64,000 nt of DNA, taken from assembly GCF_044324875.1 (NCBI RefSeq), contig NZ_CP172187.1, one strand, 5' to 3'. How positions within the stretch are numbered: position 1 is the first letter of the stretch; each line of letters begins with the position of its first letter. The notes beneath the pieces were generated by a model. It made no database searches. It had not been told where the DNA came from and was given only the letters and a program-made list of their open reading frames with translations. The stretch comes from Escherichia coli (GTDB taxonomy: Bacteria > Pseudomonadota > Gammaproteobacteria > Enterobacterales > Enterobacteriaceae). Shown here in pieces: positions 7,296 through 63,933 of this stretch. Made by a program: the position numbers and the translations under genes.

Positions 7296-7895
7296 ATCTG
7301 CTGCTCTGATTCTGACTACTGCAGTGTTGTTCTGTCTGCCGGGCGCACCTTCGGCTCCCGGCTGCCTGGCGGCATCCGGTCGTCAGGCCCGACTCCGACA
7401 GGCAGCTGCTGGCGCACCTGCCAGTCTCCGCCGAACCCGCTGGCGCGGCTTCGGGCTGCCGCTACGGTCCGATGCGTGAAAACCCCGGGCTTGCAGCGAC
7501 CGTTCTGGTCGCGCCGCCTCTGTCGCGCCGTGGCCTGCGCTCCAGGCATCCCGGCAAAAAGACGCCGGGATGTAAGGCGCAACGCCGTTTCGCAAACCGC
7601 GCTTCACGTCGTTGCTGCGGGTCCCTGCTCATTGCCTGCCGGGTGCCACACACCCGTATGAGTCCCTGTCGCCGGGGGCATAGACAGCCACAACCTGCCG
7701 CACTGACTGTCCAGGGTAAATGAACAGCCCACAAAATTTTTTACCCAAAACCCGGTAAAAAATTTTGCGTTCTGCCCAGGACAGGTGCGTCAGGCCGTGG
7801 CAGTGATGCCCCTTGCGGCGAAGGTTCTCAAACGGGTGAAGTTCATACCACAGGGAATACAGCAGCAGGTTCCCGCGAAACGTCAAAACCGCGGC
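7296..7895. repeat. Leading-region repeat family B, copy 1 (~600 bp, GC-rich); candidate Frpo/ssi-like single-strand promoter
   Basis: Shares ...CTGATTCTGACTACTGCAGTGTTGTTCTGTCTGCCGGGCGCACCTTCGGCTCCCGGCTGCC... through ...CGCGGCTCCCGAAACTCAAC with copies at 10651-11280 and 18720-19340. Confidence 0.8.
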
Positions 7896-8148
7896 TCCCG
7901 AAACTCAACGGGTGATGTTCTTTAAAAATCAGGATTTATTTCAGGCTCCGGCAATACGCATTTATGTGTTCTGTCAGTCATCCGGCTGGCAGGTAATGAG
8001 AACGCAGGAACAGAAGGAGGAAAACACCGGAGAACGTCAGACGCAGATATGAAAAAAGCAGGCCGGGGAGGACCTGCTTAATCCACACCGCAAAAACTGT
8101 TCGAGCAGTTTCTGCGGTTCCATTCAACAGTCATAAGGAGTTTCATTT

Positions 8149-10402: not shown

Positions 10403-10581
10403 TGACACAGGGCTGGCGGGAGGATAAATGCCCGTCTGTCCGCGCCGGGAAAAGACCGCGCGCCGGTGGCGCTGAAAGGGGCCGCGCTCACGCGCCGCCC
10501 CTTTCATTACGCGGACGTTCTGATGGGGGCTTCTGTCTTTTCAGACCTGTCATTTGTCTGTTACTGATGATGTTGTTGTTC

Positions 10582-10647
10582 CTGCTACTGCTACTGCTAC
10601 TGCTACTGCTACTGCTACTGCTACTGCTACTGCTACTGCTACTGCTC
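10582..10647. repeat. Hexanucleotide tandem repeat (CTGCTA)x11
   Basis: Eleven perfect units counted directly at the 5' edge of repeat B copy 2; the equivalent position in copies 1 and 3 is not expanded. Confidence 0.9.
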
Positions 10648-10650
10648 TTC

Positions 10651-11280
10651 TTTTTCCTGCTGCTCTGATTCTGACTACTGCAGTGTTGTTCTGTCTGCCG
10701 GGCGCACCTTCGGCTCCCGGCTGCCTGGCGGCATCCGGTCGTCAGGCCCGACTCCGACAGGCAGCTGCTGGCGCACCTGCCAGTCTCCGCCGAACCCGCT
10801 GGCGCGGTTTCGGGCTGCCGCTACGGTCCGATGCGTGAAAACCCGGCTTGCAGCGACCGTTCCGGTCGCGCCGCCCCTGTCGCGCCGTGACCTGCGCTCC
10901 AGGCATCCCGGCAAAAAGACGCCGGGATGTAAGGCGCAACGCCGTTTCGCAAACCGCGCTTCACGTCGTTGCGGCGGGTCCCTGCCCGTTGTTGTGTCCG
11001 GTGCCATTCACCTGTTTAAGCCCCTGTCGCCGGGGGCTGATACAGCCACAACCTGCCGCACTGACTGTCCAGGGTAAATGAACAGCCCACAAAATTTTTT
11101 ACCCAAAACCCGGTAAAAAATTTTGCGTTCTGCCCAGGACAGGTGCGTCAGGCCGTGGCAGTGATGCCCCATGCGGCGAAGGTTCTCAAACAGGTGATGG
11201 TGAATACCGGAGGGAACAAAGAGCAGGTCCCCGCAAAACGTCAAAACCGCGGCTCCCGAAACTCAACAGATGATGGGGGC
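10651..11280. repeat. Leading-region repeat family B, copy 2, directly upstream of ssb
   Basis: Direct sequence identity with copies 1 and 3; the 3' end ...CGAAACTCAACAGATGATGGGGGCTGAAAAC is shared exactly with copy 3. Confidence 0.8.
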
Positions 11281-11308
11281 TGAAAACATCAACAGAAGGA
11301 GACACATC

Positions 11309-11347
11309 ATGGCAGTTCGTGGCATTAACAAGGTCATTCTTGTCGGT
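11309..11347 (+). CDS. ssb: Plasmid single-stranded DNA-binding protein, exon 1 (codons 1-13, MAVRGINKVILVG)
   Basis: ATG with RBS AAGGAG; the 13 codons are the canonical SSB N-terminus; the reading frame is interrupted by GTGCG at 11348. Confidence 0.8.
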
Positions 11348-18719: not shown

Positions 18720-19340
18720 TCCTGCTCTGATTCTGACTACTGCAGTGTTGTCCTGTCTGCCGGCGCACCTTCGGCTCCCGGCTGCCTGGCGGCATCCGGT
18801 CGTCAGGCCCGACTCCGACAGGCAGCTGCTGGCGCACCTGCCAGTCTCCGCCGAACCCGCTGGCGCGGTTTCGGGCTGTCGCTACGGTCCGATGCGTGAA
18901 AACCCCGGGCTTGCAGCGACCGTTCCGGTCGCGCCGCCTCTGTCGCGCCGTGGCCTGCGCTCCTGGCATCCCGGCAAAAAGACGCCGGGATGTAAGGCGC
19001 AACGCCGTTTCGCAAACCGCGCTTCACGTCGTTGCTGCGGGTCCCTGCCCGTTGTTGTGTCCGGTGCCATTCACCTGTTTAAGCCCCTGTCGCCGGGGGC
19101 TGATACAGCCACAACCTGCCGCACTGACTGTCCAGGGTAAATGAACAGCCCACAAAATTTTTTACCCAAAACCCGGTAAAAAATTTTGCGTTCTGCCCAG
19201 GACAGGTGCGTCAGGCCGTGGCAGTGATGCCCCATGCGGCGAAGGTTCTCAAACAGGTGATGGTGAATACCGGAGGGAACAAAGAGCAGGTCCCCGCAAA
19301 ACGTCAAAACCGCGGCTCCCGAAACTCAACAGATGATGGG
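18720..19340. repeat. Leading-region repeat family B, copy 3
   Basis: Direct identity with copies 1 and 2; ends about 30 nt upstream of the ATG at 19371. Confidence 0.8.
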
Positions 19341-19370
19341 GGCTGAAAACCAGAGAGAGGAGAAAGCTGG

Positions 19371-21469: not shown

Positions 21470-21830
21470 TGGTGGTTCTCACCACCAAAAGCACCACACA
21501 CTACGCAAAAACAAGTTTTTGCTGATTTGCCACTTGAATCATTAACTTATGTTTTAAATAATGTATTTTAATTTATTTTACATTATAAAAAGGATTCATT
21601 GGTGAATCGCATATGATTCACCAATGAATTTAACACAACTCATAGATGAATCAGTAATAATAAAACAACGAGTTAAAGCGAATTGACTCTAGATTCAATT
21701 CGTGATGTGATTTGCTGCATGAATCGTAATTTTCGTAACTTGCGTCACGATTCGATTCATCGATGAATTGTCATTTTTTTATATGTGAAATAAATTTGAT
21801 GCGATAAGAAAATAAAGAGGTATACATATG
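21470..21830. other. oriT region; predicted nic site on the minus strand at about 21495/21496
   Basis: Minus strand reads ...TTTTTGCGTAGTGTGT|GGTGCTTTTGGTGGTGAG, the F-like nic consensus as I recall it; AT-rich with multiple inverted repeats (e.g. 21590-21630, 21690-21770) in the expected TraM/IHF/TraY binding zone upstream of traM. Confidence 0.7.
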
Positions 21831-46435: not shown

Positions 46436-46933
46436 TTGTATGGGGAGATGATAATGAGATGTTTAACCCATATTGCTCTGGTAACGGTGATACAGTTTAT
46501 CGCCTGTTATCTGGCTGGTTGGGGGAATGCCGAAACAATTTTTATGCTGTTCTTCATAGTACTATGGCAGGGACTGTTTATATGGTTGTTCTCTCAAATA
46601 CGAAAAAAACGGAATGTGTCGGATGAGTTTAAGTTTAGTAAAGGCGTTTGGTATATAACGATGCCAGTATCTTCCTTACTCTCTCCATTATTAAGCCTGA
46701 TGGTTTTTATCATTGGTACACTATACGAATTAAGGCGAGTTAGTGGTTGTGTAAGTGTAAGAGAATGGATGCAATCTCAGGTAAATGAACAAACTAATGA
46801 AGATTTGCATCTGGATTTTGATAATATGGATTTTCATCGTACTAATCCTGCAACAGGGTTACCTATGTCAGGTATTGGTGTGGATATCGGCGGTAATTCA
46901 TATGGTTATAGTTCAAAACGATATGATGAGTGA
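46436..46933 (+). CDS. traS: TraS, entry exclusion
   Basis: 165-aa AT-rich membrane protein between traG and traT. Confidence 0.75.
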   Translation: MYGEMIMRCLTHIALVTVIQFIACYLAGWGNAETIFMLFFIVLWQGLFIWLFSQIRKKRNVSDEFKFSKGVWYITMPVSSLLSPLLSLMVFIIGTLYELRRVSGCVSVREWMQSQVNEQTNEDLHLDFDNMDFHRTNPATGLPMSGIGVDIGGNSYGYSSKRYDE

Positions 46934-46978
46934 ATCTTAATTTGTATATTATGACGTTTTATTCAATATGAAGGAACA

Positions 46979-47713
46979 TTGATGAAAATGAAAAAATTGA
47001 TGATGGTTGCACTGGTCAGTTCCACTCTGGCCCTTTCAGGGTGTGGTGCGATGAGCACAGCAATCAAGAAGCGTAACCTTGAGGTGAAGACTCAGATGAG
47101 TGAGACCATCTGGCTTGAACCCGCCAGCGAACGCACGGTATTTCTGCAGATCAAAAACACGTCTGATAAAGACATGAGTGGGCTGCAGGGTAAAATTGCT
47201 GATGCTGTGAAAGCAAAAGGATATCAGGTGGTGACTTCTCCGGATAAAGCCTACTACTGGATTCAGGCGAATGTGCTGAAGGCCGATAAGATGGATCTGC
47301 GGGAGTCTCAGGGATGGCTGAACCGTGGTTATGAAGGCGCAGCTGTTGGTGCAGCGTTAGGTGCCGGTATTACCGGCTATAACTCAAATTCTGCCGGTGC
47401 CACACTCGGTGTAGGCCTTGCTGCTGGTCTGGTGGGTATGGCTGCAGATGCGATGGTGGAAGATGTGAACTATACCATGATCACGGATGTGCAGATTGCA
47501 GAGCGTACTAAGGCAACGGTGACAACGGATAATGTTGCCGCCCTGCGTCAGGGCACATCAGGTGCGAAAATTCAGACCAGTACTGAAACAGGTAACCAGC
47601 ATAAATACCAGACCCGTGTGGTCTCAAATGCGAACAAGGTTAACCTGAAATTTGAAGAGGCGAAGCCTGTTCTCGAAGACCAGCTGGCCAAATCAATCGC
47701 AAATATTCTCTGA
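46979..47713 (+). CDS. traT: TraT, surface exclusion lipoprotein
   Basis: 244 aa with lipobox LALSGCGA; matches F TraT from memory. Confidence 0.95.
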
Positions 47714-47915
47714 ACCTCGTCAGGAGGCTGATCTGACCGGCCTCCTTGCTGACGCCTCGCGTTGCTCGTTGTCCAACCCCGGGATGTAACAAAATAAATT
47801 TTGTCACCTCCCGGCGTTTCCGAAATAAATATGAAAACACTGAGCGGTTGTGCAAATTCTTTGTGCGACCGTGAAGTGTTGCCGGCGAAGCCGGGATCTT
47901 CCGGAGAAAGTCATT

Positions 47916-48704
47916 ATGACATCAGACAATATCGCTGAATATGTTGGTGAGAATAATCAATTTACTGAGAAGCCTGTAACTGAATACCCCCCGGTGATAC
48001 AGGATAATACAGTGACCACTAAAGACTATCTGTACAGCAATAATATTGATACTGACCTTTTAGTGGTTATCGGAGGGCTTATTGTTATATTGTTTCTCAT
48101 GATGCTTATCATGTACTTTATTAATTCTCTCAGGCATAAGGAATTAACTGAAATACTGACAAAAATATCTTTTCCTGAAAAATCCGGGAGCAATTCGCTT
48201 AAACCGGAAGCGGTCAGCTGTAATTTGTTGTCCCTGTGTGTGCTGGCACCGGTATTCTGTACACCCAAAAAGCTGGCTGAAGTTTCCAGGGAGATCATCG
48301 TGGCGAGTGCGCAGGAGATTGCATGGACGCCGGGGAGCAGTCGTATTGATGGTCATCAGGGCGAAAATATTACCTGGTCTCTGTCGTCACAGTCTCATGC
48401 CGATAAATACGAGCTCATCAATAAAACGTCCCGTGTTTCTCCTGACAGTGGCCGTTTTTATGAACCGGACACAGTTCTGGATCACCGTGAACGGGTACGC
48501 CTTTTTATTCAGATCCAGTTTCCGCATGGGAGTGACTGGTCTGAAGTATTGCGCCTGACTGACATTGTTGCAGAGAAGGTCTCTTCCGGCAGGACTGCAG
48601 GTGCGTATTCCGCTCTATTCGATCACGGATTGGCATCGAAGTCCGATCAGCGATTCGCATCCATTCGATCAACCGGGAACTTAACTTTTTCTACCGCTTT
48701 TTAA
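47916..48704 (+). CDS. Hypothetical single-pass membrane protein (262 aa) inserted between traT and traD; 3' end runs into the IS terminal repeats
   Basis: ORF-track frame 47850..48704; ATG at 47916; TM helix LLVVIGGLIVILFLMMLIMYFI; the last ~30 codons overlap the IS21-type terminal repeats beginning at about 48602. Confidence 0.5.
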   Translation: MTSDNIAEYVGENNQFTEKPVTEYPPVIQDNTVTTKDYLYSNNIDTDLLVVIGGLIVILFLMMLIMYFINSLRHKELTEILTKISFPEKSGSNSLKPEAVSCNLLSLCVLAPVFCTPKKLAEVSREIIVASAQEIAWTPGSSRIDGHQGENITWSLSSQSHADKYELINKTSRVSPDSGRFYEPDTVLDHRERVRLFIQIQFPHGSDWSEVLRLTDIVAEKVSSGRTAGAYSALFDHGLASKSDQRFASIRSTGNLTFSTAF

Positions 48705-49456
48705 CGCGTTTTTTCGCTGCTTTCCACTACCGGGGGATTTTTCCTCAGTGACTCTCCCTGAAGGACCACTCGGTGTGAGTTATGTACCAGTCTGTCCAGG
48801 ATGGCATCTGCTGTTGTTGGGTTCTCCATCAGACCATGCCATTTATCTACCGGGAACTGGCTTACCACTATCGTGCTGCTTTGTCCGTAACGATCCTCTA
48901 TGAGCTCCAGAAGGTCATTACACTGGGCGTTACTTAACTGTTCCAGCCCCAGATCGTCCAGGATTAGAACCTGTATTTTTTGCAACTGTTTCAGATATTT
49001 CAGCCAGCTGCCATCAACACGTCCCTGAGCCAGTTGTTCCAGTAATCGCCCGGTTCTACAGTACCGGACGCTGTGTTTCTGTCGACATGCCTGTTCGCCC
49101 AGCGCATTGGCTATCCAGCTCTTGCCACATCCTGTCGGACCGGTTATCAGCAGGTTTTTCCTGTGGGTTATGTAGTGGCCGTTCAGCAGTTCTCTCATCT
49201 GTTCAGCCCGCAGACCTCTTGAGGCCGGATAGCGCAGCCCTTCCGGTGTTGCCTGGTATTTCAGGCCGGCATTTTTTCTCAACCGTGCCACACGGCTGTT
49301 TTCCCTGCTCAGAAGCTCGTCATCAACCAGCAGCGTCAGCCTTTCCTCGAACGACAGTTCGTCGTAGGTCTGAGGCGTTTCCCGCTGCCGTATCAGGCTC
49401 CCGGCCATCGCCGGGAGTTTCAGTTGGGTCAGTTTGTTTAACAGGTTATCACTCAT
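48701..49456 (-). CDS. istB: IstB-like AAA+ ATPase transposition helper
   Basis: ORF-track frame 48701..49699; internal start MSDNLL...; Walker A GPTGCGKSW and Walker B LILDDLG. Confidence 0.8.
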   Translation of the reverse strand: MSDNLLNKLTQLKLPAMAGSLIRQRETPQTYDELSFEERLTLLVDDELLSRENSRVARLRKNAGLKYQATPEGLRYPASRGLRAEQMRELLNGHYITHRKNLLITGPTGCGKSWIANALGEQACRQKHSVRYCRTGRLLEQLAQGRVDGSWLKYLKQLQKIQVLILDDLGLEQLSNAQCNDLLELIEDRYGQSSTIVVSQFPVDKWHGLMENPTTADAILDRLVHNSHRVVLQGESLRKNPPVVESSEKTR

Positions 49457-49472
49457 ACTGTTGTTCCTTCTG

Positions 49473-51119
49473 TCAGTGGTAGTAGCCCGGACCACGCAGG
49501 TTTTCATGCTCTGAAGCATATGCCGGATGTTGTTCGCCCTGGCGGGATAATGGAAGCTCCAGGTTCTCCCGATGGTGACGCAGCAGATTGTCGATAAAGC
49601 GTCTGTCAGGGGCGTTATAGTGCAGGGCAACGTAACAGGCCTTTTCCAGCCGTTCCGGGCCGTATTTTTTCTGAAGTGCCAGCAGCCCCAGAACTGCACG
49701 ATAAGCCAGTTCCGGATGGGGTTTTGCCTTCAGCATGGATTCAACCACCCGGCCTGTGGACGGGCCCGTACGTTTTCCCTGCTCGATCAGGCGTTCCGGT
49801 GTCCATGTCCCGTGCTGCCGGTGGCGCTCTGGCATGTGAAGCGGATTGGTTGTGTGTTTATATTCATGTGTGCTGCGCGGATGTTGCGCCACACACTGCC
49901 CCTTGTGCCAGAGCTGTACCACCGACTGCCCCGCCTTCAGTGACAGACGCTGACCGACCAGTTCGTGTGGAACGGAGTACCAGTGACGGGCATATTCAAC
50001 GTGGTAGTCAGGGCCAACCTTCACAGCTTTGTATTCCGTGTATTCATAAGGTGCCAGAGGCAGCGGAGAGAGTGCTGGCGCATCCAGTATGCGGAAGCGT
50101 TCTGCACGGGTTTGATTGCCGTACCCCTTCATTGGCCGGTTATTCATGTCTGTCAGTAACTCCCTAAGGCGCGCATTCAGCGCCCTGAGCGTGTGGAAGG
50201 TTTCATTACGGATGCGGGCAAGAAGCCATCGTTCAACGATGAGGACGCCGTTTTCTGCTTTTGGTTTATCTTTAGGTTTGCGTGGTCGGGCCGGGATGAT
50301 AACCGTGCCATAGTGCTCAGCCAGTGCCTGATAACTGTCGTTGATGACAGGCTCATATCGATCGGCCTTTTTCACTGCGCTTCTGAGGTTATCGGGGATG
50401 AGCAGCTTCGGTACGCCGCCCAGGAAGGTCAGGCAACGGCTGTGGGCATTTAACCATGACATCATGTCCTGACCTTCGCACGCTTCAACGTAGGTATAGT
50501 TGGACGCCCCCATTACGGCCACGAAGATTGCCACGCGGCGTATCTCACCGGTGTCCGGATTAATAACAGGAACCGTAGGACCACAGAAGTCGATAAAAAG
50601 CTTTTCGCCGGCACGATGCTCCTGGCGCATGGAGAGACGTCGCGTTTTTTTCCACTCCCGGTAGCAACGGCAGAAGTGCGAGTATCCCATCGCTTTGTTA
50701 CCCGCCTGTGCCTTGTATTCCATCCACAACAGTTGCCGCGTCACACCTGGTTTTCTCATTTCCGTATCGAAGTACAACATGTCAGGCATTACAAGCTCTG
50801 ATGCAAAGGTGTCTTTGGGCGGAAAAATGAGTTTCTCCAGCGTGTCATGGGATATATCAGCAGGTAATGGCCATGACAGAGAAGAGGCTTTGAAGCGGGC
50901 AAGAACCTCAAAAACGGTTGAGGCGCTGATGTGTAACGTCAGTCCGATACAACGGTTAGTCAGCTTCTTGTCGAACTTGAGCTGAAGGATCTTAAAACAG
51001 GTTTCCATAGTGCTCCTGGATTTTCTCTTTCTGGACATTGACGTCTCCACTGGTTTAAACACGGCAATGGAGACTGTGGTGAAAAGAGTTAATTCCCGGA
51101 GTGACTGGCAGGATGCCAA
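49473..51119 (-). CDS. istA: IstA-like transposase (start uncertain)
   Basis: 548-aa ORF whose 3' end overlaps istB; HTH-like N-terminus; two-gene arrangement diagnostic of the IS21 family. Confidence 0.75.
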   Translation of the reverse strand: MASCQSLRELTLFTTVSIAVFKPVETSMSRKRKSRSTMETCFKILQLKFDKKLTNRCIGLTLHISASTVFEVLARFKASSLSWPLPADISHDTLEKLIFPPKDTFASELVMPDMLYFDTEMRKPGVTRQLLWMEYKAQAGNKAMGYSHFCRCYREWKKTRRLSMRQEHRAGEKLFIDFCGPTVPVINPDTGEIRRVAIFVAVMGASNYTYVEACEGQDMMSWLNAHSRCLTFLGGVPKLLIPDNLRSAVKKADRYEPVINDSYQALAEHYGTVIIPARPRKPKDKPKAENGVLIVERWLLARIRNETFHTLRALNARLRELLTDMNNRPMKGYGNQTRAERFRILDAPALSPLPLAPYEYTEYKAVKVGPDYHVEYARHWYSVPHELVGQRLSLKAGQSVVQLWHKGQCVAQHPRSTHEYKHTTNPLHMPERHRQHGTWTPERLIEQGKRTGPSTGRVVESMLKAKPHPELAYRAVLGLLALQKKYGPERLEKACYVALHYNAPDRRFIDNLLRHHRENLELPLSRQGEQHPAYASEHENLRGPGYYH

Positions 51120-51347
51120 TCAATGATCGGAAGCATGCCAAATCGTGATCGATTGTGATGCCAAACTGTGATCGGAGATGGATGCCAAATCATGATCGAT
51201 TCGAATGCCAAACTGCGATCGATTCAGATGCCATTTTGCAGCAGGCGGGTATCACCACCGGCATACAGGGTACACCTGGTCTGTTTCTGTGAATTAACCC
51301 CACATCATCCTTTTCTGCCCTGTTCCAGATTTTCCCGGAGTTTCATC

Positions 51348-53546
51348 ATGAGTTTTAACGCAAAGGATATGACCCAGGGCGGTCAGATTGCGTCCATGCG
51401 TATCCGCATGTTCAGCCAGATCGCCAATATCATGCTTTACTGCCTGTTTATTTTTTTCTGGATACTCGTTGGTCTGGTTTTATGGGTAAAAATAAGCTGG
51501 CAGACGTTTGTGAACGGCTGTATTTACTGGTGGTGTACCACGCTGGAAGGCATGCGGGATTTAATCAAGTCCCAGCCAGTATATGAGATTCAGTATTACG
51601 GCAAAACCTTCCGGATGAACGCTGCCCAGGTACTGCATGATAAATATATGATCTGGTGCGGTGAGCAGCTATGGTCCGCATTCGTTCTGGCGTCTGTCGT
51701 GGCCCTGGTTATTTGCCTGATCACCTTCTTTGTTGTCTCCTGGATTCTGGGGCGTCAGGGTAAACAACAGAGCGAAAATGAAGTCACAGGTGGTCGTCAG
51801 CTGACAGACAATCCGAAAGACGTTGCCCGGATGCTGAAAAAAGACGGCAAGGACTCCGATATCCGGATTGGCGACCTGCCGATTATCCGGGATTCCGAAA
51901 TCCAGAACTTCTGTCTGCACGGCACGGTCGGGGCCGGTAAGTCGGAGGTTATCCGTCGTCTGGCCAACTACGCCCGTCAGCGCGGTGATATGGTGGTGAT
52001 TTATGACCGTTCAGGGGAATTTGTTAAAAGTTACTATGATCCCTCCATCGATAAAATCCTGAATCCGCTGGATGCCCGCTGTGCCGCATGGGATTTGTGG
52101 AAGGAGTGCCTGACACAGCCGGATTTTGATAATACCGCAAATACTCTGATCCCTATGGGTACAAAAGAGGACCCGTTCTGGCAGGGTTCAGGACGTACCA
52201 TTTTTGCGGAAGCGGCGTACCTGATGCGTAATGACCCCAACCGCAGCTACAGCAAACTGGTGGACACACTGCTTTCCATCAAAATTGAAAAACTGCGTAC
52301 CTTCCTGCGTAATTCACCGGCAGCCAACCTGGTGGAAGAGAAAATTGAGAAAACGGCGATTTCCATCCGTGCTGTGCTGACCAACTACGTGAAAGCCATC
52401 CGTTACCTGCAGGGGATTGAGCATAACGGTGAGTCTTTTACCATCCGTGACTGGATGCGTGGTGTCCGGGAAGATCAGAAAAACGGCTGGCTGTTTATCT
52501 CGTCGAATGCCGACACCCATGCCTCCCTGAAGCCGGTGATCTCCATGTGGCTGTCCATTGCCATTCGTGGTCTGCTGGCAATGGGAGAAAACCGTAACCG
52601 TCGTGTGTGGTTTTTCTGTGACGAGTTACCCACGTTACACAAACTGCCGGACCTGGTGGAGATCCTGCCGGAAGCCCGTAAGTTCGGAGGCTGTTATGTG
52701 TTTGGTATCCAGTCCTATGCCCAGCTGGAAGATATCTACGGTGAGAAAGCGGCGGCCACGCTGTTTGACGTCATGAACACCCGTGCTTTTTTCCGTTCCC
52801 CGAGCCATAAGATTGCAGAGTTCGCTGCCGGTGAGATTGGTGAGAAAGAGCACCTGAAAGCCAGCGAGCAGTATTCCTACGGTGCTGACCCGGTACGTGA
52901 CGGGGTATCGACCGGTAAGGATATGGAGCGTCAGACACTGGTCAGTTATTCCGACATTCAGTCTCTGCCGGATCTGACCTGCTATGTCACTCTGCCCGGA
53001 CCGTATCCGGCAGTAAAACTCTCCCTGAAATATCAGGCACGACCGAAGGTCGCTCCGGAGTTTATTCCGCGTGACATCAACCCGGAAATGGAGAACCGTC
53101 TGAGTGCCGTACTTGCTGCAAGGGAAGCAGAAGGTCGCCAGATGGCCAGCCTCTTCGAACCGGAGGTTGCCTCCGGAGAAGGCGTGACTCAGGCTGAACA
53201 GCCACAACAGCCACAACAGCCACAACAGCCACAACAGCCACAACAGCCACAACAGCCACAACAGCCAGTGTCTTCTGTCATGAATGATAAGAAGTCAGAT
53301 GCAGGTGTGAGTGTTCCGGCAGGGGGGATCGAGCAGGAGCTGAAAATGAAACCGGAAGAAGAGATGGAACAGCAACTGCCACCCGGGATCAGTGAATCCG
53401 GTGAAGTGGTGGATATGGCCGCTTATGAGGCATGGCAACAGGAAAATCATCCGGACATCCAGCAGCAGATGCAGCGTCGTGAAGAGGTGAACATTAATGT
53501 GCACCGGGAGCGCGGGGAGGATGTTGAGCCGGGAGATGATTTCTGA
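51348..53546 (+). CDS. traD: TraD, type IV coupling protein
   Basis: ORF-track frame 51168..53546; true start [22 protein letters not shown] at 51348; Walker A GTVGAGKS; matches F TraD from memory. Confidence 0.95.
53199..53261 (+). repeat. 9-bp tandem repeat (CAGCCACAA)x7 encoding the TraD C-terminal (QQP)n tract
   Basis: Counted directly in the sequence. Confidence 0.9.
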
Positions 53547-56500
53547 TGTTGAGTTTTAGCGTTGTTAAATCGGCAGGCAGTGCCGGAAACTATTACACCG
53601 ACAAGGATAATTACTATGTGCTGGGTAGCATGGGAGAACGCTGGGCCGGTCAGGGGGCTGAACAGCTTGGGCTGCAGGGCAGCGTCGATAAGGATGTTTT
53701 TACCCGTCTTCTGGAGGGCAGGCTGCCGGACGGGGCGGATTTAAGCCGCATGCAGGATGGCAGTAATAAGCATCGTCCCGGCTACGACCTGACCTTCTCC
53801 GCCCCCAAAAGTGTCTCCATGATGGCCATGCTCGGGGGGGATAAACGTCTTATTGATGCACATAACCAGGCTGTGGATTTTGCTGTCCGTCAGGTGGAGG
53901 CGCTGGCTTCCACACGGGTGATGACGGACGGACAGTCAGAAACGGTGCTGACCGGTAATCTGGTGATGGCACTGTTTAACCATGACACCAGTCGCGATCA
54001 GGACCCACAGTTACACACGCATGTGGTGGTGGCTAATGTCACGCAGCATAACGGCGAGTGGAAGACACTGAGCAGTGACAAAGTGGGGAAAACCGGATTT
54101 TCCGAGAACGTGCTCGCGAACCGGATTGCGTTCGGGAAAATATATCAGAGTGAGTTACGTCAGCGCGTTGAGGCGCTGGGTTATGAAACCGAAGTGGTCG
54201 GTAAGCACGGTATGTGGGAGATGCCGGGCGTACCGGTGGAGGCCTTTTCCGGACGCTCACAGGCTATCCGGGAGGCCGTCGGGGAAGATGCCTCGCTGAA
54301 ATCCCGGGATGTGGCGGCACTGGATACGCGAAAATCCAAACAGCACGTCGATCCGGAAATCAGAATGGCTGAATGGATGCAGACGCTGAAGGAAACCGGG
54401 TTCGACATCCGGGCATATCGTGACGCGGCGGATCAGCGTGCGGAGACCCGCACGCAGGCGCCCGGGGCTGTTTCACAGGAGGGGCCGGATGTGCAGCAGG
54501 CGGTGACACAGGCCATTGCCGGATTAAGTGAACGAAAAGTGCAGTTCACGTATACGGACGTGCTGGCCAGGACGGTCGGCATACTGCCGCCGGAAAATGG
54601 TGTGATTGAACGGGCACGCGCCGGTATCGATGAGGCCATCAGCCGTGAGCAGCTTGTCCCCCTCGATCGTGAGAAGGGGCTGTTCACGTCCGGGATTCAT
54701 GTGCTCGATGAGCTGTCAGTCCGGGCACTCAGTCGTGACATCATGAAACAGAACCGGGTGACCGTACATCCGGAGAAAAGTGTCCCCCGGACGGCCGGTT
54801 ACAGCGATGCCGTCAGTGTTCTGGCACAGGATCGCCCGTCGCTGGCCATTGTGTCCGGGCAGGGCGGTGCAGCCGGGCAGCGTGAGCGGGTGGCTGAACT
54901 GGTCATGATGGCCCGGGAGCAGGGGCGGGAGGTGCAGATTATCGCTGCTGACCGTCGCTCGCAGATGAACCTGAAGCAGGATGAACGGCTGTCCGGTGAG
55001 CTGATAACCGGACGTCGTCAGCTGCAGGAGGGCATGGTCTTCACGCCGGGCAGTACCGTTATCGTTGACCAGGGCGAAAAACTCTCCCTGAAAGAGACGT
55101 TAACCCTGCTGGACGGTGCCGCACGTCATAACGTACAGGTCCTGATAACCGACAGCGGGCAGCGAACCGGTACAGGCAGTGCGCTGATGGCCATGAAGGA
55201 TGCCGGGGTGAACACGTATCGCTGGCAGGGCGGAGAACAGCGACCGGCCACCATCATCAGTGAACCGGACCGGAATGTCCGCTATGACCGGCTGGCCGGA
55301 GATTTTGCGGCCAGCGTGAAAGCCGGAGAAGAGAGCGTGGCACAGGTCAGCGGGGTACGGGAACAGGCCATACTGACACAGGCCATTCGCAGTGAGCTGA
55401 AAACACAGGGCGTGCTCGGACACCCGGAGGTGACCATGACCGCCCTGTCACCGGTCTGGCTGGACAGCCGGAGCCGTTATCTGCGGGATATGTACCGACC
55501 GGGGATGGTGATGGAGCAGTGGAACCCGGAGACACGCAGTCATGACCGCTATGTTATCGACCGGGTGACGGCGCAGAGTCACAGCCTGACCCTGCGGGAT
55601 GCGCAGGGCGAAACGCAGGTGGTGCGTATTTCCTCCCTGGACAGCAGCTGGTCGCTGTTCCGGCCGGAAAAAATGCCGGTGGCAGACGGCGAGCGACTGA
55701 GGGTGACAGGGAAAATTCCCGGACTCCGCGTCTCCGGCGGTGACCGCCTGCAGGTGGCATCCGTCAGTGAAGATGCGATGACGGTTGTTGTGCCGGGGCG
55801 GGCTGAACCGGCCACCCTGCCTGTGGCTGATTCACCGTTCACGGCACTGAAGCTGGAGAACGGCTGGGTGGAAACGCCCGGGCATTCCGTCAGCGACAGT
55901 GCGAAGGTTTTTGCCTCCGTCACACAGATGGCAATGGACAACGCCACCCTGAACGGTCTGGCCCGCAGTGGTCGTGATGTCCGGCTGTATTCTTCACTGG
56001 ATGAAACCCGTACTGCGGAAAAACTTGCCCGCCATCCCTCCTTTACGGTGGTTTCTGAGCAGATAAAGGCGCGTGCCGGTGAGACATTGCTGGAAACCGC
56101 TATCAGTCTGCAGAAAGCCGGGCTTCACACGCCGGCACAGCAGGCTATTCATCTGGCCCTTCCTGTGCTGGAAAGTAAAAACCTGGCCTTCAGCATGGTG
56201 GACCTGCTGACAGAGGCGAAGTCGTTTGCTGCAGAAGGAACCAGTTTTACTGAACTGGGAGGGGAAATCAATGCGCAGATAAAACGCGGTGATTTACTGT
56301 ATGTGGATGTGGCAAAAGGCTATGGCACAGGCCTGCTGGTTTCCCGTGCGTCGTATGAGGCAGAAAAGAGCATTCTTCGCCATATTCTCGAAGGTAAGGA
56401 GGCGGTCACGCCGCTGATGGAGAGAGTACCTGGCGAACTCATGGAGAAACTGACATCAGGACAGCGTGCCGCCACCCGCATGATACTGGAAACGTCCGAC

Positions 56501-58816
56501 CGTTTCACGGTGGTGCAGGGCTATGCCGGTGTGGGTAAGACCACACAGTTCCGGGCGGTGATGTCAGCCGTGAACATGCTGCCGGAGAGTGAGCGTCCCC
56601 GTGTCGTTGGGCTGGGTCCCACGCACCGCGCGGTCGGGGAGATGCGCAGCGCCGGCGTGGATGCACAGACACTGGCGTCCTTTCTGCATGACACGCAGCT
56701 GCAGCAGCGCAGCGGAGAAACGCCGGATTTCAGCAACACGCTGTTCCTGCTCGATGAGAGCTCAATGGTGGGCAATACCGACATGGCACGGGCATACGCC
56801 CTGATTGCGGCCGGTGGCGGTCGTGCTGTGGCCAGCGGTGACACGGACCAGCTGCAGGCCATCGCGCCCGGTCAGCCTTTCCGTCTCCAGCAGACGCGCA
56901 GTGCTGCCGATGTGGTCATCATGAAGGAGATTGTGCGTCAGACGCCGGAACTGCGGGAGGCGGTATACAGCCTGATTAACCGGGATGTGGAAAGGGCACT
57001 GTCCGGGCTTGAGAGTGTGAAACCGTCTCAGGTTCCCCGTCAGGAGGGCGCATGGGCACCGGAGCACTCCGTGACGGAGTTCAGTCACAGCCAGGAAGCG
57101 AAACTGGCAGAAGCGCAGCAGAAGGCGATGCTGAAAGGCGAGGCTTTCCCGGATATCCCCATGACACTGTATGAAGCCATTGTCCGCGACTATACCGGCA
57201 GGACACCGGAAGCACGGGAGCAGACGCTGATTGTCACACACCTGAATGAGGACCGGCGCGTACTGAACAGCATGATTCATGATGCACGGGAAAAGGCCGG
57301 TGAGCTGGGCAAAGAGCAGGTCATGGTGCCTGTCCTGAACACAGCGAATATACGTGACGGAGAACTGCGTCGTCTCTCCACCTGGGAGAATAACCCGGAT
57401 GCCCTTGCCCTGGTGGATAGTGTGTATCACCGGATTGCCGGTATCAGCAAGGATGACGGGCTGATAACCCTGCAGGATGCGGAAGGTAACACGCGGCTGA
57501 TTTCGCCCCGGGAGGCGGTGGCTGAAGGCGTCACACTGTACACCCCGGACACCATCCGGGTGGGAACCGGTGACCGGATGCGCTTCACGAAGAGTGACCG
57601 GGAGCGCGGTTATGTGGCCAACAGCGTCTGGACGGTGACAGCGGTTTTAGGTGACAGTGTCACGTTGTCGGACGGACAGCAGACCCGGGTGATTCGCCCC
57701 GGTCAGGAGCGGGCAGAGCAACATATTGACCTGGCTTATGCCATCACCGCCCACGGTGCGCAGGGGGCAAGTGAAACCTTTGCCATCGCGCTTGAAGGCA
57801 CGGAAGGTAACCGGAAACTGATGGCAGGCTTTGAGTCAGCTTATGTAGCCCTGTCGCGTATGAAGCAGCATGTGCAGGTGTACACCGATAACCGTCAGGG
57901 CTGGACGGATGCCATCAACAATGCCGTACAGAAAGGAACTGCCCACGATGTGTTTGAACCGAAACCGGACCGGGAGGTCATGAATGCAGAGCGGCTGTTC
58001 AGTACGGCGCGGGAGCTGCGGGACGTGGCGGCAGGCCGTGCCGTTCTTCGTCAGGCGGGACTTGCCGGGGGAGACAGTCCTGCACGGTTTATTGCTCCGG
58101 GACGTAAATATCCGCAACCGTATGTGGCACTGCCGGCTTTTGACCGTAACGGCAGGTCCGCCGGTATCTGGCTGAACCCGCTGACCACGGATGACGGAAA
58201 CGGGCTGCGGGGATTCAGCGGTGAAGGCCGGGTGAAAGGCAGCGGGGATGCACAGTTTGTGGCCCTGCAGGGCAGCCGTAACGGAGAGAGCCTGCTGGCT
58301 GATAATATGCAGGATGGTGTCCGGATTGCCCGTGATAATCCTGACAGCGGTGTGGTGGTGAGAATCGCCGGTGAAGGCCGTCCGTGGAATCCCGGTGCCA
58401 TCACCGGTGGTCGCGTGTGGGGGGATATCCCGGACAACAGCGTCCAGCCGGGGGCCGGAAATGGTGAACCGGTTACAGCTGAAGTGCTGGCACAGCGGCA
58501 GGCTGAAGAGGCCATCCGCCGTGAAACGGAACGTCGCGCAGATGAAATTGTCCGTAAAATGGCAGAGAACAAACCTGACCTGCCGGATGGCAGAACAGAG
58601 CAGGCTGTCAGGGAGATTGCCGGGCAGGAGCGTGACCGGGCTGCCATAACTGAACGGGAAGCCGCGCTGCCGGAGAGTGTGCTGCGTGAATCACAACGGG
58701 AGCGGGAAGCGGTCCGGGAGGTTGCCCGGGAAAATCTGCTGCAGGAGCGTCTGCAGCAGATGGAGCGGGATATGGTCCGTGACCTGCAGAAAGAGAAAAC
58801 CCTGGGCGGAGACTGA
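53546..58816 (+). CDS. traI: TraI, relaxase-helicase
   Basis: 1756 aa; start overlaps the traD stop; matches F TraI from memory. Confidence 0.95.
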   Translation: MLSFSVVKSAGSAGNYYTDKDNYYVLGSMGERWAGQGAEQLGLQGSVDKDVFTRLLEGRLPDGADLSRMQDGSNKHRPGYDLTFSAPKSVSMMAMLGGDKRLIDAHNQAVDFAVRQVEALASTRVMTDGQSETVLTGNLVMALFNHDTSRDQDPQLHTHVVVANVTQHNGEWKTLSSDKVGKTGFSENVLANRIAFGKIYQSELRQRVEALGYETEVVGKHGMWEMPGVPVEAFSGRSQAIREAVGEDASLKSRDVAALDTRKSKQHVDPEIRMAEWMQTLKETGFDIRAYRDAADQRAETRTQAPGAVSQEGPDVQQAVTQAIAGLSERKVQFTYTDVLARTVGILPPENGVIERARAGIDEAISREQLVPLDREKGLFTSGIHVLDELSVRALSRDIMKQNRVTVHPEKSVPRTAGYSDAVSVLAQDRPSLAIVSGQGGAAGQRERVAELVMMAREQGREVQIIAADRRSQMNLKQDERLSGELITGRRQLQEGMVFTPGSTVIVDQGEKLSLKETLTLLDGAARHNVQVLITDSGQRTGTGSALMAMKDAGVNTYRWQGGEQRPATIISEPDRNVRYDRLAGDFAASVKAGEESVAQVSGVREQAILTQAIRSELKTQGVLGHPEVTMTALSPVWLDSRSRYLRDMYRPGMVMEQWNPETRSHDRYVIDRVTAQSHSLTLRDAQGETQVVRISSLDSSWSLFRPEKMPVADGERLRVTGKIPGLRVSGGDRLQVASVSEDAMTVVVPGRAEPATLPVADSPFTALKLENGWVETPGHSVSDSAKVFASVTQMAMDNATLNGLARSGRDVRLYSSLDETRTAEKLARHPSFTVVSEQIKARAGETLLETAISLQKAGLHTPAQQAIHLALPVLESKNLAFSMVDLLTEAKSFAAEGTSFTELGGEINAQIKRGDLLYVDVAKGYGTGLLVSRASYEAEKSILRHILEGKEAVTPLMERVPGELMEKLTSGQRAATRMILETSDRFTVVQGYAGVGKTTQFRAVMSAVNMLPESERPRVVGLGPTHRAVGEMRSAGVDAQTLASFLHDTQLQQRSGETPDFSNTLFLLDESSMVGNTDMARAYALIAAGGGRAVASGDTDQLQAIAPGQPFRLQQTRSAADVVIMKEIVRQTPELREAVYSLINRDVERALSGLESVKPSQVPRQEGAWAPEHSVTEFSHSQEAKLAEAQQKAMLKGEAFPDIPMTLYEAIVRDYTGRTPEAREQTLIVTHLNEDRRVLNSMIHDAREKAGELGKEQVMVPVLNTANIRDGELRRLSTWENNPDALALVDSVYHRIAGISKDDGLITLQDAEGNTRLISPREAVAEGVTLYTPDTIRVGTGDRMRFTKSDRERGYVANSVWTVTAVLGDSVTLSDGQQTRVIRPGQERAEQHIDLAYAITAHGAQGASETFAIALEGTEGNRKLMAGFESAYVALSRMKQHVQVYTDNRQGWTDAINNAVQKGTAHDVFEPKPDREVMNAERLFSTARELRDVAAGRAVLRQAGLAGGDSPARFIAPGRKYPQPYVALPAFDRNGRSAGIWLNPLTTDDGNGLRGFSGEGRVKGSGDAQFVALQGSRNGESLLADNMQDGVRIARDNPDSGVVVRIAGEGRPWNPGAITGGRVWGDIPDNSVQPGAGNGEPVTAEVLAQRQAEEAIRRETERRADEIVRKMAENKPDLPDGRTEQAVREIAGQERDRAAITEREAALPESVLRESQREREAVREVARENLLQERLQQMERDMVRDLQKEKTLGGD

Positions 58817-59636: not shown

Positions 59637-60197
59637 ATGACAGAGCAGAAGCGACCGGTACTGACACTGAAGCGGAAAACGGAAGGGGAGACGCCTGTCC
59701 GCAGCCGGAAAACCATCATCAATGTCACCACGCCACCAAAGTGGAAGGTGAAAAAGCAGAAGCTGGCCGAGAAAGCAGCCCGGGAAGCAGAGCTGGCGGC
59801 AAAAAAAGCGCAGGCCAGACAGGCACTGTCCATTTATCTGAACCTGCCCACGCTGGATGAGGCCGTGAATACCCTGAAACCCTGGTGGCCGGGATTGTTT
59901 GACGGTGACACGCCCCGGCTTCTGGCCTGCGGTATCCGGGACGTGTTACTGGAAGACGTGGCGCAGCGGAATATCCCGCTCTCGCATAAAAAACTGCGCA
60001 GGGCGCTGAAGGCCATCACCCGTTCAGAAAGCTATCTGTGTGCCATGAAAGCCGGTGCCTGCCGGTATGACACGGAAGGGTATGTGACGGAGCATATTTC
60101 TCAGGAGGAGGAAGCGTATGCGGCAGCGCGTCTGGATAAAATCCGCCGCCAGAACCGGATAAAGGCAGAACTTCAGGCCGTGCTTGATGAGAAATAA
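59637..60197 (+). CDS. finO: FinO, RNA chaperone for fertility inhibition; intact
   Basis: 186 aa, basic N-terminus; uninterrupted. Confidence 0.9.
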
Positions 60198-60327: not shown

Positions 60328-60540
60328 ATGAATGGATTCAGAAACAGTTCACGGAACGGTCAGGTCTGGCGCTGGCAGCGTGCCGGAAGCCGGGCCGTTA
60401 TTCTGGAGGTCAGTGGACGCTGGATGGAAGCGGCAGAAGCATGGCGACGGGCTGCCGGTGTTGCACCCCGGACAGACTGGCAGCAGTTTGCCCGAAAAAG
60501 GGCTGAACAATGCCACCGACGCTGCCGGGGAAGGGTGTAA
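60328..60540 (+). CDS. Hypothetical small Arg/Trp-rich protein
   Basis: Short ORF; could be spurious. Confidence 0.3.
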   Translation: MNGFRNSSRNGQVWRWQRAGSRAVILEVSGRWMEAAEAWRRAAGVAPRTDWQQFARKRAEQCHRRCRGRV

Positions 60541-60787
60541 CGAAAAAGCAGCCTTCATTACTCCAGGGATTCAGAAGGCTGAATAATGCATGAGATTTGC
60601 TTTTTTTAATATCCGGTCGGGCAGTATGACCGGACAGTTCTGAGTAGCACAGAGTTTTTTCCGTATTAAGTCGTGATTTTATATTTTGTGATTAATTTCG
60701 CAAAATAAGGTGTTATTCAGTGTGTGCTGCGATATTCAGGATTACCTGAAATACAGGTGCCATTTATCTGATATGGAGAATAATATG

Positions 60788-61538: not shown

Positions 61539-62129
61539 ATGAAGTTGATTATTTTTATTCTCATTGTTCTGATTATTGCAGCGTTACTTATCCGGATTAT
61601 CCTCAGAAGTGTAAATCAGCATTCTCCTTTGCTGATGCAGTTACATGCGGCAGGTATACGGACCGGTGATGCAGAGCGAATACTGTCCGGCGGTGAATAC
61701 TGGCAACGTCAGAAGACGCTGCTGACAGAAAGGGAAGTCAGTTTTATGAAAGGACTGTTCAGAATTGTGGATATGAAGCGGTGGTATCTGTGTCCGCAGG
61801 TACGGGTCGCGGATATCGTCCAGCTGAACGGGAATATCCGGCCACGATCACGCCAGTGGTGGCAGTTATTCAGGATGGTGTCTCAGTGGCATGTTGATGT
61901 GGTTATCGTTGAGCAGCGTTCGTTCAGTATTGTTGCAGCAGTAGAGCTGGATGATGCCAGCCATTTACGACCGGAACGCAGACGCCGGGATATTCTTCTG
62001 GAAGAGGTTCTGAGGCAGGCTGGTATTCCGTTGCTCAGAAGCCACGATGCCAGAAAACTGCTGCAGATGACCGGAGAATGGCTGAATACAACAGGGGCTG
62101 ATCAGCAGTCCCCGGAACATCGTAGCTGA
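61539..62129 (+). CDS. Membrane-anchored protein, possibly DUF2726-like
   Basis: 196 aa with N-terminal TM helix; family assignment from memory and uncertain. Confidence 0.5.
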   Translation: MKLIIFILIVLIIAALLIRIILRSVNQHSPLLMQLHAAGIRTGDAERILSGGEYWQRQKTLLTEREVSFMKGLFRIVDMKRWYLCPQVRVADIVQLNGNIRPRSRQWWQLFRMVSQWHVDVVIVEQRSFSIVAAVELDDASHLRPERRRRDILLEEVLRQAGIPLLRSHDARKLLQMTGEWLNTTGADQQSPEHRS

Positions 62130-62283
62130 CGCCTTCGCGTTGCTCAGTTGTCCAACCCCGGAAACGGGAAAAAGCAAGTTTTCCCCGCTCCCGGCGTTTC
62201 CGTAATAAAAAACGGGAAATGGTGGTCACAGAATAAATTCCGGAACTACCTGTACCCAAACTTTATATAATAAAGGTGAATAT

Positions 62284-62733
62284 ATGGAATATGATGATGT
62301 ATCAGAATTGATGATTAAGCGTGAACACAATATTCTTATTGTTGGGAATTCTGCCTCCCACATTGATAAGTTTTTTAAGGAGTATTCTATACCAAGTTCT
62401 AAATATTATGATTTCACTCAGATTAACAGTGATTCAGATGTAGAGAGAAATGAGAATGCTGTCTCTTTTATCAGGGATGCAATGAATAGTGAAGAGCTCA
62501 CAATCATTTTTAATTGCGTTGGGTGGCCTGATTTAGGTGGTGGAGCAGCAGTATCACAGTTTGCAATGATGGCCAGAAAATTTGGTAAACAACTTATTGT
62601 CGCTGTAAGTGAAAAGGATGCCATCAAATTAAAAGACAACTTTGATATTATTGGGATGTTGTCATATGGTAAAGAAAATTTTATTGCCATGAGTCATACG
62701 AAAAGCGAGTTAACTGGAGGGAAACGTCGGTAA
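62284..62733 (+). CDS. Hypothetical protein (149 aa), markedly AT-rich
   Basis: ORF with RBS AAAGGTG; Rossmann-like pattern (ILIVGNS...IIFNCVGWPDLGGGAA). Confidence 0.5.
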   Translation: MEYDDVSELMIKREHNILIVGNSASHIDKFFKEYSIPSSKYYDFTQINSDSDVERNENAVSFIRDAMNSEELTIIFNCVGWPDLGGGAAVSQFAMMARKFGKQLIVAVSEKDAIKLKDNFDIIGMLSYGKENFIAMSHTKSELTGGKRR

Positions 62734-62947
62734 CGGATTAAAAATAGATGTAAATAAAAAGCATACTTATTGGCTGGAGTGACGCCTTCGTGCTTCGGTA
62801 GTAAAAAACGGGAAATGAAGGTAATAGTCAGCAACAGGGAATGTGGTATTATCGCGGCGGGTGTCTGAGCCTTTCTGGTTCAGGCAAGACGCAGGTACCA
62901 GAAATGCGAAGACCCCACTTGTTAATCCATTAACTCGTGAGGTCTGC

Positions 62948-63154
62948 ATGAAGTACTTGAACACTACTGATTGTAGCCTCTTCCTTGCAGAGAGGTCAAA
63001 GTTTATGACGAAATATGCCCTTATCGGGTTGCTCGCCGTGTGCGCCACGGTGTTGTGTTTTTCACTGATATTCAGGGAACGGTTATGTGAACTGAATATT
63101 CACAGGGGAAATACAGTGGTGCAGGTAACTCTGGCCTACGAAGCACGGAAGTAA
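62948..63154 (+). CDS. SrnB' leader reading frame (mok analogue)
   Basis: ATG at 62948 (MKYLNTTD...) in frame with srnB. Confidence 0.5.
   Translation: MKYLNTTDCSLFLAERSKFMTKYALIGLLAVCATVLCFSLIFRERLCELNIHRGNTVVQVTLAYEARK
63005..63154 (+). CDS. srnB: SrnB/PndA-type Hok-family toxin (49 aa)
   Basis: MTKYALIGLLAVCATVLCFSLIFRERLCELNIHRGNTVVQVTLAYEARK. Confidence 0.85.
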   Translation: MTKYALIGLLAVCATVLCFSLIFRERLCELNIHRGNTVVQVTLAYEARK

Positions 63155-63698: not shown

Positions 63699-63933
63699 CT
63701 AAGTTACTTTCTTGAACATTTGAATTGCGGATGCTAGATTACTGATCGTTTAAGGAATTTTGTGGCTGGCCACGCCGTAAGGTGGCAGGGAACTGGTTCT
63801 GATGTGGATTTACAGGAGCCAGAAAAGTGAAAACCCCGATAATCTTCAGCAAGTTTGGCGACTAAGAGAAGATTAACGGGGCCATCTAAAAACCGTATAG
63901 CCAACAATTCAGCTATGCGGGGAGTATAGTTAT

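Follow-up and report, generated by a model that had tools for sequence, protein, structure and literature searches.

A conserved two-hairpin module at gene-unit junctions of F-like conjugative plasmids keeps its pairing on the transferred strand

A short non-coding module located between traT and traD, and again close to the replicon, of an Escherichia coli plasmid is, judging by its distribution, a conserved backbone element of F-like (IncF) conjugative plasmids, in which comparison of flanking sequences shows it to be the common junction of many different upstream and downstream sequences. The module contains two hairpins (H1 and H2), and comparison of its variants shows that pairing in H2 has been kept by compensatory change while the sequence diverged, and that it has been kept on the minus strand only, which is the strand transferred in conjugation. 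Taking this strand bias as our only guide, we tentatively propose, with a probability of roughly 40%, that H2 is a structure acting in the single-stranded transferred strand, in the recipient, and that the module also anchors recombination.

The window, by which we mean the whole 64-kb stretch of DNA that was analysed, comes from a conjugative plasmid of the F-like (IncF) group, whose tra operon lies on the plus strand. The features of the window to which the module relates are the following:

7480-7908, 10839-11337 and 18900-19350, minus strand folds better: three copies of a Frpo-like repeat of ~450 bp, homologous to two sites in F, one of them immediately 5' of ssb
46979-47713, plus strand: traT (open reading frame and translation; annotated traT in near-identical plasmids)
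47720-47746, plus strand: H0, a GC-rich hairpin directly 3' of traT (from folds; found in F too)
~47748-47765, 47768-47777 and 47775-47818, plus strand: H1, spacer GTTGTCCAAC and H2 of module copy 1 (F orthologue at L025 39585-39661)
47916-48594, plus strand: optional ORF between module copy 1 and traD, split by an IS21-family insertion (remainder at 51242-51292)
~48595-51241, istA/istB on the minus strand: IS21-family element, ISSso4-like (terminal repeats 51130-51244)
51349 onwards, plus strand: traD
53546-58816, plus strand: traI
59637-60197, plus strand: finO
61539-62129, plus strand: DUF2726-family gene, its stop codon supplied by the TGA at the start of module copy 2
62124-62144, 62147-62156 and 62154-62198, plus strand: H1, spacer and H2 of module copy 2 (covariance model and arm searches)
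62197-62219, plus strand: H3, a context-specific hairpin, TTTCCG..CGGGAAA (repeat family D18 and folds; homologues in L004, L005 and L028)
62227-62793, plus strand: ORF149 unit (ORF 62284-62733), missing from related plasmids
62780-62817, plus strand: module copy 3, at the end of the ORF149 unit; TGACGCCTTCG followed by H3-like sequence (repeat family D18)
62825-63015, plus strand: hok/sok (srnB-like), in which a promoter-like site (62825-62852) precedes an Rfam match to sok (62859-63015)
63825-63916: CopA (Rfam)

Other observations on this stretch concern a run of CTGCTA and 12-nt repeats in the leading region (10558-10680), about nine tandem copies of CAGCCACAA, encoding Gln-Pro-Gln repeats, close to the 3' end of traD (53181-53270), and, in the interval from finO to the nuclease gene, a strong minus-strand Rfam match (60437-60620; 202 bits) to the antisense RNA AS-pc02, originally reported from plasmid pHK01.

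The module is about 73 bp long. Copy 1 occupies 47750-47822 (plus strand) in the traT-traD intergenic region, 37 nt past the traT stop codon (47711-47713), and copy 2 lies at 62127-62202 (plus strand), with a leading TGA that doubles as the stop codon of the DUF2726 ORF. The internally deleted copy 3, on the plus strand 3' of ORF149, consists of TGACGCCTTCG at 62780-62790 and TAAAAAACGGGAAATG at 62802-62817; relative to copy 2, it has lost ~56 nt between two GCGTT repeats, comprising the 3' half of H1, the spacer and H2. A covariance model of the module, built from 14 variants, identified the two full copies and nothing else in the 64-kb window, scoring copy 1 at 73.9 bits (E = 3.5e-14) and copy 2 at 100.3 bits (E = 5e-20), and neither the 34-nt left arm nor the 15-nt right arm had any chance match in shuffled sequences. 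The original prediction had described two full copies and a partial one, with different hairpins between the conserved arms, and in this it was accurate: the motif lies where it was reported and both versions of the hairpin pair.

The elements of the module follow one another in the order H1, spacer GTTGTCCAAC and H2, between a sharply conserved 5' start, (C)TGACGCC, and a GTTTC 3' end. The sequence of H1 is GACGC-CTTC-GCGTT in copies of the E. coli type and GACGCC-N7-GGCGTC in those of the Klebsiella type, and the spacer that separates it from H2 is nearly invariant and unpaired. H2 has a 19-bp stem in which a variable stem and loop are enclosed by AAC-C-CCGG on one side and CCGG-C-GTT on the other. 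The H2 sequences of copies 1 and 2 are wholly unlike and their flanks are alike, and both fold into paired stems. Because their H2 sequences differ completely while the flanks are shared, the two copies are, on this comparison, old paralogues under selection.

The sequences adjoining the two full copies have features of their own. H0 shows a slight preference for the mRNA strand (RNA fold of -15.4 kcal/mol on the plus strand and -13.3 kcal/mol on the minus strand), and it is possible that it constitutes the true traT 3' hairpin. A hairpin at 47833-47880, just past copy 1 in the conserved traT-traD leader, folds far better on the plus strand (-24.7 vs -10.6 kcal/mol) and perhaps represents a feature of the mRNA in the 5' region of traD. 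Like H3, both H0 and this hairpin are specific to their context. Weak similarity is also apparent between 47720-47749 and 62095-62126, reaching ~35 nt beyond the 5' edge of the module in both copies (GG(A)GGCTGATC..CCGG..), and an H0-like non-coding sequence may be the source of the final ~12 codons of the DUF2726 gene.

We detected the module in at least 5000 PLSDB records, at no fewer than 8201 places, from plasmids of Escherichia, Klebsiella, Shigella, Salmonella, Enterobacter, Citrobacter, Yersinia, Serratia and Pantoea, and a Buttiauxella contig was also among the carriers. Complete E. coli genomes contain it in 3419 of 5426 cases, at a median of two places per genome, and 6705 of these 6766 places (99%) lie on plasmids, the other 61 lying elsewhere. 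A scan for exact arms in one genome per species returned 19 loci, all of them on plasmid-like enterobacterial contigs or evident contaminants. The usual placement is one copy between traT and traD and one to three more closing variable units between traX/finO and the RepFIIA replicon. According to the covariance model, run over the whole of F, the F plasmid carries a single copy, in the traT-traD position, and since an orthologue sits in F itself, copy 1 can be taken as ordinary F-like backbone. Like REP/BIME elements, the modules are short and repeated, form imperfect palindromes and lie 3' of stop codons in intergenic sequence that is transcribed; unlike them, they are present in one to three copies per plasmid, are nearly absent from chromosomes (61 of 6766 places) and have neither the GTAG motif nor an associated RAYT transposase. 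A REP-like genome-wide repeat was ruled out on the basis of this restriction to plasmids (6705 of 6766 places). Searches of both module regions against Rfam at E <= 10 returned no match to the module, with the nearby sok, CopA and AS-pc02 being detected. A literature search covering the motif sequence, traT-traD terminators, ssi and ProQ/FinO targets revealed no description of the module family, its arrays or its strand bias; the older primary literature lay mostly outside its scope, and an earlier description there is possible.

To characterize the sequences joined by the module, we clustered the 200-nt flanks of 33 occurrences with complete flanks. This yielded 13 upstream and 11 downstream clusters in 17 combinations, with several upstream clusters pairing with two or three downstream clusters, and conversely. 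The upstream neighbours comprise traT, the DUF2726 gene, a DsbA-family gene, a 102-119-aa ORF ending in ..YWFR.., a 337-aa ORF, a 64-aa ORF, an 86-aa ORF between traT and the module, and remnants beside an MFS-transporter island. Downstream lie the traD leader, H3 followed by hok/sok, ORF149, a PLD-family nuclease gene, repA2 and others. The module is always located 3' of co-oriented genes, 0-200 nt from the stop codon, and the reading frames of three unrelated ORF families (197, 108-119 and 344 codons) end at its TGA. In every locus compared, homology to the window starts and stops at the module edges, with a fuzzy 3' boundary (GTTTC..AATAA). Tandem arrays of gene(s) plus module were found in L027 and L029 (Shigella / E. 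coli plasmids), each with three units and three different module variants, and the Buttiauxella contig (L012) has two modules 2.5 kb apart; no recombinase or integrase annotation was found near the arrays. The 86-aa ORF (5742-6002 of L031, E. coli pOkiPb01703_2) is an extra gene between traT and the module, and genes can therefore insert on the upstream side of the traT-traD copy too. Ten module-flanking ORFs, among them 47916-48594 and 62284-62733 of the window, 5755-8803 of L027 and 4601-5448 of L012, gave no matches against NCBIfam and PADLOC, and the junction units thus represent a reservoir of uncharacterised genes.

Within the window, H3 follows the module where hok/sok is downstream and is repeated at 62794-62827. 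L004, L005 and L028 have no ORF149, and in them the module and H3 are joined straight to the hok/sok leader, a comparison by which ORF149 and the deleted module are an extra inserted unit in the window. The optional ORF 3' of traT (47916 onward) is membrane-protein-like, with no second module behind it; F lacks it, and it occurs in 1773 of the 4020 PLSDB records that matched. The IS21-family element that interrupts it is 99.7-100% identical to copies in many plasmids, and, because no PLSDB record covers more than 60% of the region 46900-51300, its insertion here looks specific to this plasmid. The original prediction regarded the module as a boundary of inserted gene cassettes, and the flank comparison supports this reading as a pattern: the motif recurs at the borders of many unrelated units in F-like plasmids, and both the ORF149 unit and the tandem arrays conform to it. 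The traT copy is backbone, and the variable gene at its site lies downstream of it rather than between modules.

The MAFFT alignments of the module were partly out of register in H2, and pair statistics were accordingly taken from per-sequence folds. The 17-19 distinct H2 variants all fold to the same stem, in which many pair positions are occupied by three or four Watson-Crick pair types. RNAalifold showed stronger covariation for the minus-strand alignment (-15.6, with five compensatory pairs) than for the plus-strand alignment (-11.2, with two). Across 17 variants, the minus strand forms 312 pairs, 32 of which are G·T, with no AxC; these 32 positions read A·C on the plus (mRNA) strand (32 vs 0), although the variants are related and the 32 G·T correspond to an estimated 8-10 independent events. 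Mismatches on the minus strand are limited to a GxG present in 17/17 variants, three CxT and one GxA. Summed over the H2 variants, the folding energy is -475 kcal/mol for minus-strand RNA vs -325 kcal/mol for plus-strand RNA, and -263 vs -188 kcal/mol when computed for DNA. Both full copies in the window behave accordingly, and the H2 of copy 1 shows compensatory changes with respect to the F and L031 variants:

47775-47818, minus strand: H2 of copy 1; RNA fold -24.3 (minus) and -17.4 (plus) kcal/mol, DNA fold -15.7 (minus) and -10.0 (plus)
62154-62198, minus strand: H2 of copy 2; 19 pairs including 3 G·T, and the conserved GxG mismatch; RNA fold -28.7 (minus) and -15.0 (plus) kcal/mol

Among 144 strong 48-nt hairpin windows in the 64-kb stretch, 82 favour the plus strand and 48 the minus strand, with copy 2 being the most minus-biased of all 144 (-14.2 kcal/mol). 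Controls favouring the minus strand in the same stretch are the three Frpo-like regions, oriT, finP, copA and sok, and the neighbouring H0 and H3 favour the plus strand. We rejected an artefact of strand-biased mutation, since the window as a whole has no minus bias and the adjoining H0 and H3 lean to plus. These patterns of substitution indicate that the module is under purifying and compensatory selection, and the suggestion that it is a recombination scar was therefore a misnomer: under selection, the module would be a functional sequence where exchanges happen, not a leftover. Contrasting G·T with A·C in this way is a reusable test, able to tell mRNA hairpins from transferred-strand or antisense elements in plasmids.

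The nic-region sequence of oriT lies on the minus strand at 21488-21506, and the leading region, recognised by its homology to the F leading region, is found at lower coordinates. Conjugative transfer proceeds 5'->3' and the leading region enters first (PMC7690428, PMC11541004), and together these three observations show that it is the minus strand that is transferred. The backbone genes all share one orientation, so that the orientation of transfer and that of transcription are inseparable by comparison.

The placement of the module agrees best with a plus-strand mRNA 3'-end element, either a weak or partial terminator or an exonuclease-blocking hairpin, that would shield the hok, repA2/copB, PLD nuclease gene and traD promoters from tra read-through; the strand bias contradicts this explanation, and we consider it rather unlikely. 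Its location after the stop codons of co-oriented genes and 5' of promoters (hok, repA2, the PLD nuclease gene and traD) is the pattern of an insulating terminator, with the promoter-like site for hok directly downstream of the module, and the adjoining H0 and H3 are plus-biased. Plus-strand H2 RNA still folds, at -9 to -31 kcal/mol across variants and -15 to -17 kcal/mol in the window copies. The region after traT in F was assayed for terminator activity, to go by the title of a study of F traS/traT that refers to "terminator activities" (Jalajakumari et al. 1987, J Mol Biol 198:1), and copy 1 is the orthologue of the F traT-traD region to which these traT-distal "terminators" belong. Yet the stem is followed by CGUUUCCG, with no U-tract, and a scan for consensus terminators in both copies and on both strands produced no match. 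Each non-Watson-Crick position of H2 is A·C on the plus strand, with no G·U there, which is the opposite of what selection on an mRNA hairpin would leave, and terminators have neither an invariant unpaired spacer nor a conserved CxC/GxG mismatch. The module is thus probably not a simple terminator, and the role of shared terminator originally predicted for it is at odds with RNA folding that favours the minus strand, with the missing U-tract and with the empty terminator scan. The strand bias fits equally well a minus-strand antisense RNA, FinP/CopA-like, that the module would encode or form part of, with H2 followed by H1 as two stem-loops in ~75 nt. FinO RIP-seq on pSLT identified FinP and RepX as dominant ligands and mentions no such RNA (PMC8136791). 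The minus bias is shared with finP, copA and sok of the window, all minus-strand H2 loops are YUNR-like (C-U-N-G or U-U-U-A), and a short U-run follows minus-strand H1 in Klebsiella-type and DsbA-type copies. No such run follows H1 in E. coli-type, DUF2726-type or traT-type copies, so that, unlike FinP, CopA and Sok, the module has no consistent U-tail, just as it has no adjacent promoter, Rfam family or fixed target gene. Sigma-70 scores beside minus-strand H2 were no better than those of shuffles in 22 of 24 contexts, a consensus promoter scan found nothing at the modules on either strand, and the downstream sequence that would bear the promoter differs among contexts; an antisense RNA consequently appears improbable.

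Integron attC sites carry an R'' core RYYYAAC on the 5' side and, complementary to it, an R' core GTTRRRY on the 3' side. That the module is an attC-like site for site-specific recombination in a cassette system, folded on the bottom strand and mobilized together with its gene(s) as a unit, would account for the tandem units with unlike modules and the combinatorial flanks. As in attC, an imperfect palindrome lies at the 3' end of promoter-less units, the ORF stop codon can fall within its start, and AAC...GTT triplets flank a variable stem; GTCCAAC fits the R'' core in nearly all variants, and the folding bias is towards the bottom strand, on which attC is functional. However, no integrase (intI) or other recombinase is annotated around the arrays, and the 3' core is GTTTCCG, GTTTCTG or GTTTTTG instead of GTTRRRY, limiting pairing to the AAC/GTT triplets. 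The stem is continuous except for the single conserved 1x1 GxG mismatch, with neither the unpaired central spacer nor the extrahelical bases of attC sites; the module has an additional hairpin, H1, and its sequence is far more conserved than theirs. The fuzzy 3' homology boundary (GTTTC..AATAA) offers no fixed crossover point, and ordinary homologous recombination in a 73-bp conserved island explains the shuffling. The module is not a member of the attC family, and a site of this general kind seems to us quite improbable. A fortuitous likeness, or one recent duplication of the traT 3' UTR, would agree with the presence of only two full copies in the window, and verges on the negligible: shuffles gave no matches, the module occurs in thousands of plasmids and at least 13 upstream contexts, and the window copies, with unlike H2 and like flanks, are old paralogues. 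Absence of the motif from other cassette boundaries, the outcome that would have pointed to such a one-off duplication, was not what the plasmid comparison revealed. On the minus strand we also considered a likeness of the module to the pMB1/ColE1 origin (GGAAAAACGCC..AGCAACGCG), which proved to be a chance one, with authentic ColE1 (L032) lacking AGCAACGCG and the alignment score being reached by 59 of 200 shuffles. Similarity to the F and R388 nic sites (the relaxase site) is weak.

As a signal on the transferred strand, H2 would be read while the plasmid is single-stranded in the recipient. By analogy with the Frpo/ssi sites of the leading region, its likeliest role would be to start or position complementary-strand synthesis, as a priming or primosome site just 5' of both the replicon and traD. 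Synthesis primed at the module would proceed in the plus direction, from copy 2 into hok/sok, repA2, copA and repA, and from copy 1 into traD and traI, in an arrangement that may be likened to that of Frpo upstream of ssb and psiB. In both cases the structure is favoured on the transferred strand, with the three Frpo-like regions of the window sharing the direction of the bias, and lies just 5' (in the mRNA sense) of genes needed early; the three ~450-bp leading-region repeats are themselves, from their homology, likely Frpo-type single-stranded-DNA promoters. The differences are also clear. Frpo spans ~300 nt, contains a -35/-10 mimic and lies in the leading region (PMC7690428, PMC11541004), whereas the module measures 73 nt (45 nt for H2), has no hexamers and is situated in the part of the plasmid that enters last. 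No -35/-10 mimic was found in H2, and comparison of repeat families revealed no similarity between the module and the Frpo-like repeats of the window.

The recombination attributed to the module could follow from the same conservation. In a region that otherwise varies, the module is the sole conserved stretch of homology, so that exchanges between co-resident plasmids, by homologous recombination or by template switching, would resolve inside it and could generate cassette-like shuffling and tandem arrays with no dedicated recombinase. A broader proposal, which we hold to be doubtful but worth stating, is that F-like plasmids carry an unrecognised class of transferred-strand signal, a 73-nt two-hairpin element serving, for instance, as a second-strand priming origin, and perhaps also as an exchange site for promoter-less units through a single-strand, attC-like or template-switch mechanism.

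If this were true, the region from finO to repA would be a cassette array without an integron, and a transferred-strand signal outside the leading region would bear on how the remainder of the incoming strand is converted to duplex and how the replicon starts. In E. coli, Klebsiella and Shigella, resistance and virulence genes are carried chiefly by IncF plasmids. Whatever its function, the module pinpoints the swap points of the tra-distal accessory units in these plasmids, and provides a landmark for annotating their backbone, for comparing them and for locating new cargo genes.
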